Positions 11,931 to 64,000 of a DNA stretch of 64,000 nt are shown here, piece by piece (position 1 is the first letter of the stretch; every line of letters starts with the position of its first letter). The stretch lies in IMG/VR virus record IMGVR_UViG_3300009152_000046, positions 2,425 through 66,424 of that record; one strand, 5' to 3'. A program made the translations under genes and the position numbers. Under the pieces are notes generated by a model that saw only the letters and a list, made by a program, of their open reading frames with translations, ran no database searches and had not been told where the DNA came from. The DNA comes from a virus.

Positions 11931-11962
11931 CGTATTTTATATTTTATTGTTAATAAACTCTT

Positions 11963-12014
11963 TATAACAAATGATAAACAACATTAAAACGATTGTTTAT
12001 CATCGGACGTTATG
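11963..12014. mobile_element. attC-like hairpin site 2
   Basis: TATAAC-aa-ATGATAAACAA-cattaaaacga-TTGTTTATCAT-cggac-GTTATG. Confidence 0.6.
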
Positions 12015-12059
12015 CCCAGATTTTCTAAAGATATTATACTAAAATTTTAATAAATAATA

Positions 12060-12186
12060 AAGACCGGCGGACTTAAATGTCCCACATTAGGACCGGTTAT
12101 AGTTTAGGCTATAAGAAAACGTCGACCTCGCTAGTCGACGTTTTCGCTTTCTATCGACCTGCGGTAAGTTTGTGTTTTACTGCAAG
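12060..12186 (+). ncRNA. candidate structured small RNA downstream of a late promoter
   Basis: Late box at 12050; several hairpins, including a 12-bp GAAAACGTCGAC/GTCGACGTTTTC stem; G-U pairs favour the + strand. Confidence 0.35.
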
Positions 12187-12226
12187 CTATTATCATAACT
12201 TAATAATACTACAAGTTTTGATAAAA

Positions 12227-12256
12227 TAAAAAAGGATCTCAAAAAGAGATCCTTTA
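12227..12256 (-). terminator. intrinsic terminator
   Basis: AAAGGATCTC-aaaaa-GAGATCCTTT with a T-tract on the minus strand. Confidence 0.75.
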
Positions 12257-12276
12257 GCAAGAGCCTGACGTTAAAT

Positions 12277-27317: not shown

Positions 27318-27487
27318 ATAAGATCTTACTTTATTTTTTTAAAATGGTTTATTAATTGGTCACCTGGAGATAATACAGGTGACTATTTTTACTGATATAT
27401 GGCAATTTACCAAAAAAGTTAATTCTATTTTCCTAAGTAACTATACTAAGAAAATCTGAAAGAATAAATAATAAAAAGAGGTTTTAG

Positions 27488-36848: not shown

Positions 36849-36857
36849 TCACAGGCC

Positions 36858-37052
36858 GTGAAACATGAAAAACCAGAAAGTTGGAAAAACTTAGAAAACT
36901 ACAGAAAGGGTAAAGAACAGTTAAAAAATGCAATAGTTCAGCACCCAGACGACGAACCCAAGACTTCAATCTACGATTATGTCAAAAAGAACGTTAATCG
37001 AAAGCTATGGGTGATACCATTTGACAAATTTAAAAGAAAAGGCGGTAAATAA
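36858..37052 (+). CDS. small hypothetical protein
   Basis: 64 aa; GTG start. Confidence 0.5.
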   Translation: MKHEKPESWKNLENYRKGKEQLKNAIVQHPDDEPKTSIYDYVKKNVNRKLWVIPFDKFKRKGGK

Positions 37053-37067
37053 CTGCCTTTCTTTTTT
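37034..37067 (+). terminator. intrinsic terminator
   Basis: AAAGGCGGT-aaata-ACTGCCTTT followed by a T-tract. Confidence 0.65.
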
Positions 37068-37099
37068 ATGATAAATAACTAAAATATAGCGTATACACA

Positions 37100-58698: not shown

Positions 58699-60366
58699 AT
58701 GGCACGTACTAAAATTTTTAGACGTTCAAGCGACGCTCGCTTGTCAAACACTTGGAAGCCTGTTCTTGAAGGATACGGAGCAGATATGTCGAAGACTCCA
58801 TGGTTAGCTGAGTACGCTCACAACCACGCGATTTTCGATAATACTACACCATTATTCGAACAAGCAACTCCAGGATTATTTTTCCAACAACCATCTTCTT
58901 TAGGCGGTTATATGGGAGCACCAACTGCACCAACTTCTGGACAAACTCCATTTTCAATGGGTGCAAAAAATTCTTACTCAGATTCTGGATCTGGTGACAA
59001 ATTCCCTTCACTTTTACCTGTAGCTATCCAAGTTGCAGCTAAAACAATCGGATTTGACTTAGTACCAGTAATTCCAATGGATTCTCCAGTAGGTTTCTTA
59101 CCGTACTTAGATTACGTTTATGCAGGTGGTCGTACAGACAACCCTAACGGTAATGGGAATAACTTTGATCCTTATTTGATTAAGGTTGAAGGTCTTACTT
59201 ACAATGAATTTCCAAGTGCAACCTCTGGTGATACTGTAAATGGTGCTGCTGACTTTACTGCAGAATTCGTAGGATTCTCTCGTATCGATGGTAATGTAAT
59301 CATTAAAGTAAAAACAGATATTTCAACTGCAGGTGAAGGTTTCGTATCGGATAACGTACTTGGTTTCCTTGCTCCACTTACTATTAATGGTGACGGTCCA
59401 TTTACAGGTACCGCAGTATCTTTAGTTTCTGCACTAGAAAACCACATCTCTGGTTTCACTTCAGTATCTGATGCTGATTATGCTACTACAGACTTCAATG
59501 GTCCATACTTACCAACTACTGGTACTGTACCGGGATCTATGAAGAGAGATAAAGCTGAGCTTTCTAAATTCCGTCAAATGGGATTAAGAATGTTCACTAA
59601 ATTCGTAGAAGCAGAAGGTGACCAAGTGTCTATCTCTGCAACTGTAGAACAAATCCAAGATTTGAACCGTGTATGGAATTATGACGTAATCTCTATGTTA
59701 GAGAACGTTGCAGTTAACGACATCGCTCAATCTATCAACAAGCGTTTAGTTGACAGAGTATTAACTCTTGCGGCTACTCACTCTACTGAAGTAGCATTAG
59801 TTGAAGGTGCAGGTATCACTAACCTAGACCTTACTGCTGGTGGTGGTGGATTCGAAAACGTTTCTACATTACAACGTCGATTAGCGACTAAAGTTCTTGA
59901 AATGGCTAACTTGATTTATCATAGAGGTCGTTTCGGAGCAGCTACCTTCATGGTAACTAACGGTCGTATCGCTTCTGCTCTTGCAGACGTTGCTGGTTAC
60001 TCAATTGCTCAAGTTCCAACCGATATGGCTGGAGTAGCAGGTAACCTTTACCCAGCTGGTAAAGTTTACGGAGTACAAGTATACGTAGATCCTAACATGC
60101 GTTGGGGAGATAACCGTGTAGTATTAGGCCGTAAAGGTGCTGATGAAGAACCAGGTATCAAATTCATGCCGTATATCATGGCTGAGTCTTTACAAACAAT
60201 TGCAGAGGGTACATTCTCTCCAAAAATTGGTATGAAGTCTCGTTATGCTATCACAGAAGCAGGATGGCACCCAGAAACTCAATACATTAATATCGAGATC
60301 GATCCTAATGCTATTGGAGTTCTTACTGGAAGCACTGCTCCTGCTACATCATACGGTACGCTTTAA
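58699..60366 (+). CDS. gp23: major capsid protein (T4 gp23-like)
   Basis: LVPVIPMDSPVG, TVEQIQDL, VYVDP, FMPYI and FSPKIGMKSRYA motifs; strong codon bias. Confidence 0.92.
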   Translation: MARTKIFRRSSDARLSNTWKPVLEGYGADMSKTPWLAEYAHNHAIFDNTTPLFEQATPGLFFQQPSSLGGYMGAPTAPTSGQTPFSMGAKNSYSDSGSGDKFPSLLPVAIQVAAKTIGFDLVPVIPMDSPVGFLPYLDYVYAGGRTDNPNGNGNNFDPYLIKVEGLTYNEFPSATSGDTVNGAADFTAEFVGFSRIDGNVIIKVKTDISTAGEGFVSDNVLGFLAPLTINGDGPFTGTAVSLVSALENHISGFTSVSDADYATTDFNGPYLPTTGTVPGSMKRDKAELSKFRQMGLRMFTKFVEAEGDQVSISATVEQIQDLNRVWNYDVISMLENVAVNDIAQSINKRLVDRVLTLAATHSTEVALVEGAGITNLDLTAGGGGFENVSTLQRRLATKVLEMANLIYHRGRFGAATFMVTNGRIASALADVAGYSIAQVPTDMAGVAGNLYPAGKVYGVQVYVDPNMRWGDNRVVLGRKGADEEPGIKFMPYIMAESLQTIAEGTFSPKIGMKSRYAITEAGWHPETQYINIEIDPNAIGVLTGSTAPATSYGTL

Positions 60367-61406: not shown

Positions 61407-61739
61407 ATGAAATTGTGTATACTATGCGAAGACGCAAACATCACCGAGGCTCGCAAAACCTCAGCTGATGTTTTACCAAAATACGAATTTGCTGAGAGAT
61501 TACTTGAATTAAAAAAGAGGAAAGATCCTGAAGCGGCACTAGAACATTTAAAAATACCTCTTTCCCCAACTGGAGAGTTACCAGCAACCCATTGGTTTTG
61601 TTTCATCAACGTAAACGACACAACCTATCAAAAAATGCTGGAGTCTCAAAAGTATACCATTATTGAAGAGGCAGTACCGTCTGAGTTTTTAGCTAAACAT
61701 AACTTAAAGAAAATAAAAAGCTTTGGTCCAGGATTATAA
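61407..61739 (+). CDS. hypothetical protein
   Basis: 110-aa ORF. Confidence 0.6.
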   Translation: MKLCILCEDANITEARKTSADVLPKYEFAERLLELKKRKDPEAALEHLKIPLSPTGELPATHWFCFINVNDTTYQKMLESQKYTIIEEAVPSEFLAKHNLKKIKSFGPGL

Positions 61740-62346
61740 GTTACTCAAAGGATTTGTCAGTCGAAGCGAAACTGAAGAAATAAAGGCTTGGGTCGATAGT
61801 TTAACTATTGAGTCAGGTTCGCCGAATCATCACCTTAGTGAGTTGGCTAAAGCCATAAATGGAAAATCCATTATTTTTGATATTGCAGACACTAGCTATA
61901 CTAATTATATTACAAAATTTCAATCGATTTCGGCAGTCAAGAATGAGCCTGTCCCAGTGATCATTCTTAAGCTAATTGATAGAATTGCAGAAACTTTAAA
62001 GATTTCAAAAGATCATATCTTTCTACAGGCAGTAGACATGAATCGCGGCGGGCGGATTGCTCCGCACTATGACGCTTCAGTCGAAGGTTGTATCAATTAT
62101 AAGTGTAATCTAAGCGTACACTCAGAAGATTATACGATGCATATTGATAAAAATAATGTGCTAATTCAGGAGACTGATCTATACTGCTTTGAAGCATCTC
62201 TTTACAAACACTGGACTGATCCTTTTAAATCACGCAGAATATTTTTAAGTTTTGGTTTTATCTTAAAATACGAAGAGTTAGGGAGGACCGAACTGGATCC
62301 TAGAGTAAGGTTGAGCAAGCGTATAGAAAAGTACTTTCAAAAATAA
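61723..62346 (+). CDS. 2OG-Fe(II) oxygenase
   Basis: GGRIAPHYD (HxD), distal KHW and R..LSFG motifs. Confidence 0.75.
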   Translation: MVQDYKLLKGFVSRSETEEIKAWVDSLTIESGSPNHHLSELAKAINGKSIIFDIADTSYTNYITKFQSISAVKNEPVPVIILKLIDRIAETLKISKDHIFLQAVDMNRGGRIAPHYDASVEGCINYKCNLSVHSEDYTMHIDKNNVLIQETDLYCFEASLYKHWTDPFKSRRIFLSFGFILKYEELGRTELDPRVRLSKRIEKYFQK

Positions 62347-62349
62347 AAT

Positions 62350-62377
62350 AAAAAAGGACCAATTTGGTCCTTTTTTT
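62350..62377. terminator. bidirectional intrinsic terminator
   Basis: AAAAAAGGACCA-att-TGGTCCTTTTTTT. Confidence 0.85.
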
Positions 62378-62383
62378 ATATGG

Positions 62384-62580
62384 TGGGCATCCTTCAAAAG
62401 CCGTAAGATAAGTAGAATAATTAAATTGAATTTTGAACGAGTGAGGTTTGCTTTTTGAACTCTTGTGTCTTGAATTTTGAGAAAATCGCTATCTTAATCG
62501 TGCATCATTCTGTCAGAATTTGTATAGACGTGCAAGTCTGATATTATGCTACAGATAATACTTCTAGTGTCAGACGCCCA
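62384..62580 (-). ncRNA. candidate structured RNA with periodic CAA repeats
   Basis: Closing stem UGGGCGUCU/GGAUGCCCA; inner stem UAAGAUAG/UUAUCUUA encloses 8 CAA/CAC units. Confidence 0.55.
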
Positions 62581-62582
62581 TA

Positions 62583-63011
62583 TTAGATCTGGGTAGTATT
62601 ATTAAAATGATCCAATTTTTCTTGGATTGCATCCAATTGACCTTCGATTAGATCCATTTGCGAATCTTTCCACTTAATATCAAAGTGAGCTTCCATTTCT
62701 ACTGAATCGTCAGCATATCTGTCGCGAAACCGCCCGTTTGTCGTGTTTAAACTACGAACGTTATTGATTTTAGTCTTTAATTCAGAAAGAGTAAAGATTT
62801 GGTCTCTTACTGGAGCAGAAGCAGTATGAATCTTGGTTTTTAGCTCAATTAGAGAAGTAACCTCTGCATTATATTCTTCCCAAGTAGCCTCAAGATCGTA
62901 TGGCTTTTCTGCACCCTCAATTGATGAGTTATGTTGCGAAATACGGCTCCACAATTTTTGAATTTTAGAGACTTTTTTGTTCTTTTCTTTTAGTGCTTGT
63001 GCAATTGTCAT
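62583..63011 (-). CDS. all-helical coiled-coil protein, possibly DIP1984-like
   Basis: MTIAQALKEKNK...LIELKTKI...IQEKLDHFN..T; family resemblance is from memory only. Confidence 0.6.
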   Translation of the reverse strand: MTIAQALKEKNKKVSKIQKLWSRISQHNSSIEGAEKPYDLEATWEEYNAEVTSLIELKTKIHTASAPVRDQIFTLSELKTKINNVRSLNTTNGRFRDRYADDSVEMEAHFDIKWKDSQMDLIEGQLDAIQEKLDHFNNTTQI

Positions 63012-63292
63012 GACTTTTTTCTTTTATTTTTAGATGAGTTATAATTAAATCGTTCTTTGATTGGGGTAAGGTCTGATACTAGCACAATAATTGGGCAATA
63101 TCCATTATCTTCAGGATACTTTTGCCAGATTTCACGCATTCTGCGGCCGGCTTCACAATCTAAGATGAATAAACTGTCTTTTGCTGGGGTAGAAACTGCA
63201 TACTCGTTTACGAGCGGTTTCTTTGTTTGATCCACTTGTGCCGAAATTACTTCGCTGACCAACAATAACAAACTAGTGATTAGTATTTTCAT
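63008..63292 (-). CDS. hypothetical exported protein
   Basis: Signal-peptide-like MKILITSLLLLVSEVISAQ. Confidence 0.55.
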   Translation of the reverse strand: MKILITSLLLLVSEVISAQVDQTKKPLVNEYAVSTPAKDSLFILDCEAGRRMREIWQKYPEDNGYCPIIVLVSDLTPIKERFNYNSSKNKRKKS

Positions 63293-63555
63293 TTTACTAC
63301 TTCTTCGTAAGATTTCCACAATACTTGACTCATTCCTTCTGCTAAAGGTTCTTCTCCCTCTTCGGGTTCTACTGGAAATGCAAGTAAAATATTTCCATTA
63401 ATATCTTTTGCAACTGCCACGAAACCAAATCCTTCACAAATAATTGAGGTATAGTGTTCGTTCGGAAGACCGTCTGCGATTTCATGAATATCGAAATCTG
63501 ATCCTATTCCTGTTTCATCGTGGATTTCACACCACTGCTTAGAAAATTCTGCCAT
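63289..63555 (-). CDS. hypothetical protein
   Basis: 88 aa; AAACC-16-TATAAT promoter upstream. Confidence 0.65.
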   Translation of the reverse strand: MAEFSKQWCEIHDETGIGSDFDIHEIADGLPNEHYTSIICEGFGFVAVAKDINGNILLAFPVEPEEGEEPLAEGMSQVLWKSYEEVVK

Positions 63556-63602
63556 AGTTTTTGATTATTTGCTTAAATTATACAAAGAAAAGTTATAAGG
63601 TT

Positions 63603-64000
63603 TCACAAAAGGTGAGGTTTTGCCTCATTTATTCCAGCATTAGTAACTATTACATACTCTGGATAATATTCATGTAGGTTAGTTGCACCAGCATAGGAAA
63701 GCGCAGAACGAACTCCATCTAAAAGACCATTAACTATAAACTTAGTGCCACCTTTATATGGAATAACAGTAGACTCGCCCTCTACATTTCGAGCAGCTTG
63801 TCCGTGTGCAACTTTAGTTTCAAGCGAAGCAGAACCCCGATATCTCTTATATAGACCATTTGTTTTTTCAATAATTTGACCAGGAGATTCGTCAGTTCCC
63901 GCAAGTAAGGAACCTAACATTACACAATTTGCGCCGACTGCTAAGGCTTTTGCAATATCACCACTCGTTCTGACTCCTCCATCTGCCATTACGGGCACGA
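63603..64000 (-). CDS. IMP dehydrogenase/GMP reductase, C-terminal part (runs off the window)
   Basis: [39 protein letters not shown] and VEG motifs. Confidence 0.9.

Follow-up and report, generated by a model that had tools for sequence, protein, structure and literature searches.

A conserved structured RNA with evenly spaced CAA triplets follows a DIP1984-like gene in a T4-like phage

TRAP, an 11-subunit beta-sheet ring, reads (G/U)AG triplets separated by spacers of 2-3 nucleotides (nt) in a 5' leader, with one triplet per subunit. In type III toxin-antitoxin modules, the ToxI RNA is made of ~36-nt tandem repeats, precedes the toxin gene, from which it is separated by a terminator, and is cut by the toxin endoribonuclease. 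Phages also encode structured RNAs of unknown function, GOLLD and ROOL, which are 400-800 nt long, often lie near tRNA genes and are untied to one protein family. The HutP hexamer takes up three XAG motifs on each face, and the crystallised RNA is contacted at A4, A11 and A18 (excerpt of PMC2425495). The non-coding RNA YrlA is described as a tRNA mimic (excerpt of PMC4201824). Here we analyse a 64,000-nt stretch of viral DNA (positions 2,425 to 66,424 of IMG/VR record IMGVR_UViG_3300009152_000046, hereafter "the window"), in which a gene for a 142-residue protein (62583-63011, minus strand, from the list of open reading frames, ORFs) is followed by a ~200-nt element carrying evenly spaced triplets. 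An earlier note, made from the sequence alone, had proposed that this protein oligomerises on the RNA. The parent record has 66,424 bases (completeness 26% by CheckV) and belongs to a T4-like phage, since a Gp23 major capsid protein was recognised by Pfam at 58699-60366 (E 1.6e-36).

The element sits at the convergence of two transcription units, in an ORF-free gap of 236 nt (62347-62582) between two convergent stop codons. This gap ranks third among only four ORF-free stretches of at least 150 nt in the window, of which 3.9% is ORF-free. The earlier note had likewise pointed to ~200 non-coding nt between stop codon and terminator in a packed genome. The whole conserved element, as delimited by the covariance model R2 described below, spans 202 nt of the minus strand (62380-62581). 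It starts 1 nt past the stop codon of the 142-aa gene and ends just ahead of an intrinsic terminator (62350-62376, minus strand; 12 pairs, then a T-run), which also faces the convergent gene at 61723-62346 on the plus strand.

From 5' to 3' on the minus strand, the element opens on the 5' arm of a closing helix (approximately 62541-62581; model helices 1-5), which begins with AUGGGCG and was placed by cmsearch alignment, pair counts and the minimum free energy (MFE) fold. This arm is followed by a small hairpin with stem AGAC/GUCU (62525-62540; model helix 6), and by a GAU block of four triplets with a period of 6-7 nt (62485-62506; triplets at 62506, 62499, 62493 and 62487). Then comes a G-poor CA(A/C) block (62424-62481; 9% G, 45% A), devoid of conserved pairing, in which eight triplets are spaced by 7-8 nt and which ends in UCAAAAUUC. 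The 3' arm of the closing helix (approximately 62385-62423) holds an 8-nt insertion peculiar to this lineage, and is directly followed by a conserved tail, ACCAU (62380-62384). The closing helix, long, imperfect and interrupted, thus joins the 5' and 3' ends of the element. Models R1 and R2 found a single copy in the window, and the 66-kb record holds one copy as well; the window copy scores 120.8 bits with R2 (E 8e-24 for 397 kb searched). Neither model matched the remaining three long (≥150 nt) ORF-free stretches in the window (11931-12276, 346 nt; 36849-37099, 251 nt; 27318-27487, 170 nt).

Part of the pairing drawn in the earlier note was recovered. The outer pairing of 62580-62572 with 62392-62384 is present in the MFE fold and recurs in the comparative model as helices 1-2, and the AGAC/GUCU hairpin is retained, with changes on both sides in all 4 of its pairs. 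Two further stems of that note were not supported: the 8-bp stem UAAGAUAG/UUAUCUUA, whose 3' half lies in and beside the lineage-specific 8-nt insertion, and the UAUUAU/AUAAUA hairpin can both be drawn in the window copy and are absent from the MFE fold and from the comparative model. Thermodynamics alone do not single out the element, because its folding energy without the terminator has a z of only -1.75, and 8 of 200 shuffles are just as stable.

The eight CA(A/C) triplets of the earlier note were all found, and form a chain that is unique in the window when both strands are considered, the next longest chain having 3 triplets. Among 100 dinucleotide shuffles of the whole window, none reached a chain of 8 and one reached 7; a chain of 5 strict CAA triplets was reached once. 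Distances were also counted in 38 elements, which are relatives and hence not independent. CAA-CAA distances peaked at 7/8 nt (42/24 occurrences), 14/15 (21/27), 22 (38) and 30 (19), for an expectation of ~3-6 scaled by length from flanking coding DNA, and GAT-GAT distances peaked at 6-7, 13-14 and 20-21 nt, well above flanking coding DNA. The pair GAU...GAU is invariant in alignments A1 and A2, and the most conserved sequence of alignments A1, A2 and A5 is CUCAAAAUUCAAGA...UCAAAAYUC. The triplet register is a conserved property of this RNA family. Rho and Hfq were tentatively set aside as readers of the repeats, their binding registers being a mismatch to the 7.3-nt period.

A scan of viral contigs guided by the protein gave 48 loci, in which the identity of the relatives ranged from 34% to 99%. 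In 40 of the 44 viral loci where the next ORF could be called, the gene was followed by a non-coding stretch of 150 nt or more, and the sequences had the same layout. Model R1, whose structure was set by hand on four well-aligned sequences and with which all loci were then searched, yielded 23 full-length matches, one per locus and each after the gene. Model R2 was built from 14 non-redundant R1 matches and run on 59 sources. At E≤0.01 there were 37 matches, from 37 different sources, and every one came immediately after the gene; at E≤1, 43 of 45 matches did so. There was no R2 match in 15 sources, three of them cut off just past the gene. With filters off, locus L045 passed (E 4e-6; L numbers are those of our collection of loci) and eight further sources gave weak, rightly placed matches (E 0.06-1.3); at L081, L086 and L088 the layout was recognisable by eye only.

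The distance from stop codon to element was short (median 3.5 nt; at most 20 nt in 36 of 38 elements), and a terminator-like hairpin satisfying a strict pattern came after the element in 25 of these 38 relatives. Searching from the RNA side led back to the same gene: a sequence pattern for the CAA block matched 15 viral contigs, all with the gene upstream, 14 of which were already known through the protein, the gene of the fifteenth being clipped by the contig end. The gene was present in 45 of 45 compared loci, the best other neighbour, an 88-aa ORF, in 12. No copy of the element away from the gene was found with the CAA-block pattern, with R2 or in the 66-kb record. The RNA is associated with the 142-aa gene much more closely than with any other neighbour.

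Compensatory changes were abundant. In the 14 sequences, 85.3% of the cells were in standard pairs, versus 43-48% when the 3' partners were slid by 1-3 columns; double changes were seen in 25 of 28 pairs, and none of 500 shuffles reached any of five measures. With 44 distinct sequences, 83.7% of the cells were paired versus 42-46% after sliding, all 28 pairs had double changes (a measure that 144 of 500 shuffles also reached), and the covariation score was 0.634 versus 0.181 in shuffles, none of 500 reaching it. G-U pairs were frequent, and the element was strand-specific, with a terminator after it. The comparative structure was set by hand, then refined with covariance models; on plain MAFFT alignments of the phage-clade elements, RNAalifold predicted little structure. 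An early comparison of cognate and non-cognate duplexes (mean -25.9 versus -19.9 kcal/mol, with poor ranks at many loci) was confounded by terminators and related loci, and was not used as evidence. Both the CAA periodicity and the stem covariation that the earlier note proposed to look for in the 3' regions of homologues are present. This confirms that the stretch encodes a structured RNA, conserved through selection acting on the RNA, and is not a chance pattern, and we consider it nearly certain that this RNA is functional.

Part of the stretch was present in six metatranscriptome runs, four of which were compared in detail. RNA contigs from three studies cover the element almost exactly, the gene being on separate contigs. 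Contig X16 matches 62383-62564 with no mismatch, and is flanked by an Illumina adapter at 62383, where the closing helix has its foot; contig X18 covers 62387-62561 and contig X15 62365-62565. These contigs carry neither strand nor level, and RNA libraries can contain DNA. Parts of the stretch left uncovered by these contigs, and differences in depth, were given no weight.

Several loci show local peculiarities. In a 65%-identical relative, a self-folding, GC-rich insert of ~127 nt lies between stop codon and element (L004:3430-3556). In one clade of Crocinitomicaceae and Bacteroidota bins (L065-L068, L076), no separate terminator is seen and the 3' arm of the closing helix runs into a U-run; the closing helix itself may terminate transcription there. 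In 8 of 58 loci (L036, L046, L064, L073, L085, L088, L096 and L100), ARAGORN detected tRNA genes at 3 kb or less from the module, Rfam added tRNAs at L044 and L100, and a tRNA directly follows the RNA in L036, L046 and L088.

The 142-aa protein is not the plain coiled-coil protein that the earlier note described. It scores 26.7 bits with Pfam DUF6847 (PF20935), for a cut-off of 27, and 39.4 bits with NCBIfam DIP1984_fam (NF038048), for a cut-off of 70, the latter match being full-length (residues 3-141 on 2-148 of 149). In a precomputed table, PF20935 is carried by many close homologues. With hhalign, an alignment of 22 phage-clade sequences (A6) matched an alignment of 3 true DIP1984 proteins (A8), that is, proteins above the curated cut-off, with 96.2% probability (E 2.5e-9, 123 columns). 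The AlphaFold2 model, with a mean predicted local distance difference test (pLDDT) of 92.3, has four helices and a beta hairpin. Foldseek matched it to 3kdq_A and 3kdq_C (probability 1.00, template modelling score 0.77-0.80) and to no other entry at E<1; a single-sequence search of the Protein Data Bank (PDB) gave no match. PDB 3KDQ, an entry with four chains, is a Corynebacterium diphtheriae protein of unknown function. On the strength of profiles and of the modelled fold, the protein is a distant member of the DIP1984/DUF6847 family.

A profile search with the phage clade retrieved 1,962 clusters at 50% identity (E≤0.001), and the best 150 of these 1,962 were 137-182 residues long and matched over nearly their full length. 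Most close homologues belong to uncultured freshwater phages and to contigs in Flavobacteriia bins (such as Crocinitomicaceae and Cryomorphaceae). PADLOC returned weak LmuB coiled-coil matches only (13-14 bits).

When four copies were co-folded, the homo-oligomer score was 0.67, versus 0.03 for the best of 3 controls. The mark applied is reached by 20 of 30 proteins solved as same-chain pairs, as against 1 of 23 single-chain structures, a calibration made on two copies, four being folded here. Contacts agreed at 90% or more between runs, with a partner pLDDT of at least 87. Self-association is thus predicted, in line with the earlier note. The head-to-tail contact needed for a TRAP-like ring is not, since both copies contribute the same residues to the interface, which makes it the contact of a two-fold dimer. 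Five polar residues that are invariant, K8, K10, N11, Q130 and N137, are absent from those listed at the predicted interface, and might therefore be free for a ligand.

More distant homologues, at 28-35% identity, lie on contigs labelled Bacteroidales, Fimbriimonadaceae, Akkermansiaceae, Verrucomicrobiia and Bifidobacterium. As read by eye, their genes are followed first by GAU-type repeats and then by CAA-type ones, at a period close to 7 nt. The repeat word varies by clade: UCAA, UUAA, CGCAA (L086), CUCA/CAC, and UUAAAAG in a 595-kb uncultured phage. Such variation fits the outcome expected from co-evolution with the linked protein. In the 595-kb phage, a lysine-rich ORF of ~28 codons lies between the gene and the UUAAAAG-repeat RNA (L103:1990-2080).

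True DIP1984 genes occurred in 3 of the 301 genomes sampled from one phylum, in 2 of 401 from a second phylum, and on 372 plasmid records, 343 of them from Acinetobacter. We examined 13 true DIP1984 loci, taken from Actinomycetota, Pseudomonadota, Cyanobacteriota, Bacillota and Bacteroidota-sample genomes, and all have a downstream RNA of ~170-220 nt. These RNAs have pairing outer arms (z≤-2.2 in 10 of 13) and a C/A-rich block with CUCA/CAC words about every 7 nt. At their 5' end, GCG(A/U)G is followed by a 5-nt helix strand, the partner of which comes just before a 3' (C/U)UGA-type motif. This inner helix has nine different sequences among the 13 loci, with at least 4 of 5 pairs in 12 as scripted; the thirteenth locus, L095, was mis-anchored by the script and has 5 of 5 pairs by eye. 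With filters off, R2 did not reach these RNAs, and RNAalifold predicted nothing on their MAFFT alignment, so that their apparent kinship with the window element rests on layout and on the GGGCGA junction as judged by eye.

The RNAs behind true DIP1984 genes (L093-L095, L098-L101, L104-L110) also share a GGUAG hairpin, GCG(A/U)G...(C/U)UGA around the covarying helix, and the sequence CCCAGCA; a G-rich tail, CGAGGGYGGGNNCGGGG, is present in 7 of them. On small Acinetobacter plasmids (343 records; Acinetobacter baumannii pAC12, L098), the gene annotated "septicolysin" or "DIP1984 family protein" is followed by ~500 nt without annotated gene, inside which we found an element of ~190 nt closed by GAACAUACUG/CAGUAUGUUC. 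Upstream of the Enterococcus faecium DIP1984 gene, on the opposite strand, a T-box leader scores 86.8 bits for a gathering threshold of 93 (L099:1097-1327, minus strand).

A few further ideas on the element were looked at, and most of them dropped. A tRNA-like 3' end was suggested by the ACCA tail (62384-62381), which is restricted to some members of the closest clade. A reading frame for a small peptide, opening at the conserved AUG (in AUGGGCG), would span 3 codons here and ~10 elsewhere, and is not conserved. At the GGGCGA/AGA junction, a candidate kink-turn has standard pairs replacing G-A in the window copy, and an extra base in the true DIP1984 RNAs. The T4 stable RNAs rnaC and rnaD are without repeats and bear no resemblance on reading.

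Taken together, our preferred explanation is that the 142-aa gene and the ~200-nt RNA form one two-part module, in which the RNA would be the cis-encoded partner of the protein. We put the chances of this reading at about one half, and we are likewise evenly divided on the binding of the RNA by the protein. Gene and RNA would be co-transcribed up to the terminator at 62376-62350, the RNA being probably made from the gene's strand as part of the same transcript. The linked protein would then read the triplets: no other factor accompanies the RNA in phages, on plasmids and across six or more phyla, the repeat word tracks the protein clade, self-association is predicted, and invariant polar residues lie off the interface. 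It might bind as dimers, several per RNA, to build a ribonucleoprotein. Since the RNA is part of the protein's own message, a first consequence could be the capture in cis of newly made protein, leading either to autoregulation or to sequestration of an activity. An accessory role tied to mobile elements would fit the distribution of the module, which includes phages, plasmids and dispersed positions on chromosomes.

Several points weigh against this reading. The positive oligomer result may reflect memory of the four-chain PDB 3KDQ entry, and a symmetric dimer contact, as modelled, gives neither a ring nor an obvious 7-nt repeat. The protein is not basic (pI 5.8; family median 6.4), and Pfam, NCBIfam and Foldseek revealed no known RNA-binding domain. 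Tight linkage would also arise if the RNA merely stabilised or timed the message. The pair counts come from model-fitted alignments, which are biased towards structure. Finally, the RNA contigs of three studies stop at 62561-62565, within the 5' arm, and if this were the true 5' end the closing helix could not form; these stops are more probably assembly breaks, due to strains that share the element and differ in the gene.

Among the other explanations, the one that survives best is that the RNA soaks up an oligomeric RNA-binding protein or a nuclease of the host, as a decoy or sponge, and that the DIP1984-like protein works in the same pathway without contacting the RNA. Sponge RNAs such as CsrB and RsmZ present many short motifs on an unpaired stretch within a stable frame, a layout similar to the present one, and an acidic to neutral protein without RNA-binding domain, together with an element found in RNA libraries, would suit this role. 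We nevertheless hold it to be unlikely: the element spans at least six labelled phyla, which have no obvious common non-ribosomal RNA-binding factor, its repeat word varies with the protein clade, and no copy was found apart from the gene.

A little less probable still is a purely cis-acting 3' untranslated element, serving 3' exonuclease protection or processing with no dedicated protein partner. The position of the element, 1 nt past the stop codon and with a terminator after it, speaks for such a role, as does the clade in which closing helix and U-run seem to act as terminator. A stabiliser, however, has no need of an unpaired stretch of ~60 nt whose triplet register persists from phylum to phylum, nor of invariant sequence blocks, and other genes of the window do without any such element, as only 4 ORF-free stretches reach 150 nt.

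As a special case of the preferred two-part module, a harmful protein might be neutralised by RNA binding in the manner of type III toxin-antitoxin systems, as the earlier note had suggested. The pair of protein and RNA recurs in phages, in 372 plasmid records (small Acinetobacter plasmids among them) and here and there on chromosomes (3 of 301 and 2 of 401 sampled genomes), a patchy, mobile spread that is typical of addiction or defence modules. The suggestion is hard to maintain, and we think it improbable: there is no ~36-nt tandem repeat, the RNA lies downstream with no terminator between gene and RNA, no ToxN/AbiQ-like fold was detected, and PADLOC gave only weak coiled-coil noise.

A signal acting in the DNA itself, for instance iterons that serve replication, packaging or recombination and for which short repeats at fixed spacing are also typical, or a chance pattern, is very hard to believe, given compensatory changes and many G-U pairs in helices spanning ~190 nt, a strict orientation and position relative to one gene, presence in RNA libraries and at more than 40 diverged loci, and a chain of 8 triplets that was reached by none of 100 shuffles.

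Around the module, the minus-strand run is made of the 88-aa ORF, a 103-aa ORF and then the 142-aa ORF, and is faced convergently by a 207-aa ORF (61723-62346, plus strand). A promoter-like site before the 88-aa and 103-aa ORFs (63577-63606, minus strand), recognised by consensus match only, may weakly mark the start of the transcription unit; 6 promoter-like sites were found in the region for 7.1 expected from shuffles. The 88-aa ORF (63289-63555, minus strand) has no family match, and its conservation next to the module is confined to the closest clade (12 of 45 loci, 41-61% identity). Another ORF (63603-63998, minus strand) runs off the window end, has a 73%-identical copy in L007, and presumably corresponds to the C-terminal part of an enzyme of the IMP dehydrogenase / GMP reductase type. 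The window contains no tRNA or tmRNA gene. PHROGs gave no match for the 142-aa gene or five neighbours, and blastn of the region against named phages gave none either; by tblastn, the only matches were in two uncultured huge phages.

The searches of Rfam 15 with the window region (E≤10) and 24 related loci (E≤1) returned only tRNAs, one T-box and noise, the best scores in the window region (SSRC38, 29.9 for a gathering threshold of 80; SraG, 23.9 for 50) being due mainly to the terminator hairpin. The RNA is therefore without a match to any Rfam 15 family. In the full-text library that was searched, we found neither the RNA nor a function of the protein described. We conclude that this is a new RNA class and a new pairing of RNA and protein genes, with a wide distribution. 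It would add to Rfam 15 a structured RNA class that is missing there, and an RNA behind every examined clade is the first concrete functional lead for a large family of unknown function.

If the protein does read the triplets, it would offer a new example of protein recognition of evenly spaced RNA words. Going further, we tentatively suggest, as a broader proposal that we find less likely than the module itself, that the DIP1984/DUF6847 fold could be a widespread class of sequence-specific RNA-binding proteins, each encoded with its own structured RNA, whose dimers would line up on triplets ~7 nt apart in an addiction, defence or counter-defence device carried by phages, plasmids and genomic islands. 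This bears on the Acinetobacter plasmid copies, which are annotated as putative cytolysin or "septicolysin". In the plasmid literature, "septicolysin" is a putative virulence factor by analogy with thiol-activated cytolysins (excerpt of PMC5559437). The analogy looks doubtful, because the protein would be a helical fold of 142-154 residues and cytolysins are large. Were RNA binding a property of the whole DIP1984 family, the "septicolysin" annotation would be wrong, and a previously unseen kind of ribonucleoprotein would exist across at least six bacterial phyla.

How does this module compare with known systems? Like GOLLD and ROOL, it comprises a structured phage RNA, in some loci with tRNAs within 3 kb (8 of 58), but no GOLLD or ROOL match was found here with Rfam, and the element is tied to one protein family. 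With type III toxin-antitoxin systems such as ToxIN, it has in common a gene and a cis-encoded, repetitive RNA that would bind the protein, carried by phages and plasmids. The ToxI and ToxN features listed at the outset are all absent: Tandem Repeats Finder detected no tandem repeat in 62380-62582 at a score of 30 or more, the sole terminator comes after the RNA and not between an upstream RNA and the gene, and no match to a ToxN/AbiQ-type endoribonuclease was obtained with Pfam, NCBIfam, PADLOC or Foldseek.

The arrangement recalls that of Ro60 (Rsr) and its Y RNAs, where the non-coding RNA adjoins the partner gene and its 5' and 3' ends form a long stem. Moreover, a hairpin resembling a tRNA T-arm, GGGUUCGAYUCCC, occurs in the RNAs behind four true DIP1984 genes (L100, L105, L106 and L109), and is reminiscent of the tRNA mimicry that the same excerpt reports for YrlA. 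The differences are that Pfam and NCBIfam found no Ro60/TROVE domain in the neighbouring ORFs, and that the Rfam Y RNA and YrlA models matched neither the window region (E≤10) nor 24 related loci (E≤1). To our knowledge, the triplet-repeat block has no counterpart in Y RNAs.

With TRAP and the trp leader, the module shares evenly spaced triplets; it departs from them in having a helical protein, for which a symmetric dimer is predicted, a period of 7-8 nt, and an RNA located 3' of the gene. Neither the fold forming a closed ring, which characterises TRAP and HutP, nor a 5' leader with a choice between terminator and antiterminator was found: Foldseek matched only 3KDQ, the predicted contact is symmetric, and the element lies between stop codon and terminator. 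HutP is a hexamer of another fold, and its RNA, in the 5' leader, controls a terminator and carries 3+3 motifs, whereas the present element is 3' of its gene, combines CAA and GAU words as 8+4 motifs, and is enclosed by a long helix. What the module does share with these systems is evenly spaced triplets on unpaired RNA (eight CA(A/C), 7-8 nt apart, in a block with 9% G), and with the HutP-bound hut terminator RNA of Bacillus subtilis the likeness goes as far as triplets in a 7-nt register, free spacers and, if the prediction holds, an oligomeric reader. By analogy, then, recognition would be most like that of HutP or TRAP and the layout most like that of Ro and Y RNA, the module being a member of neither group.

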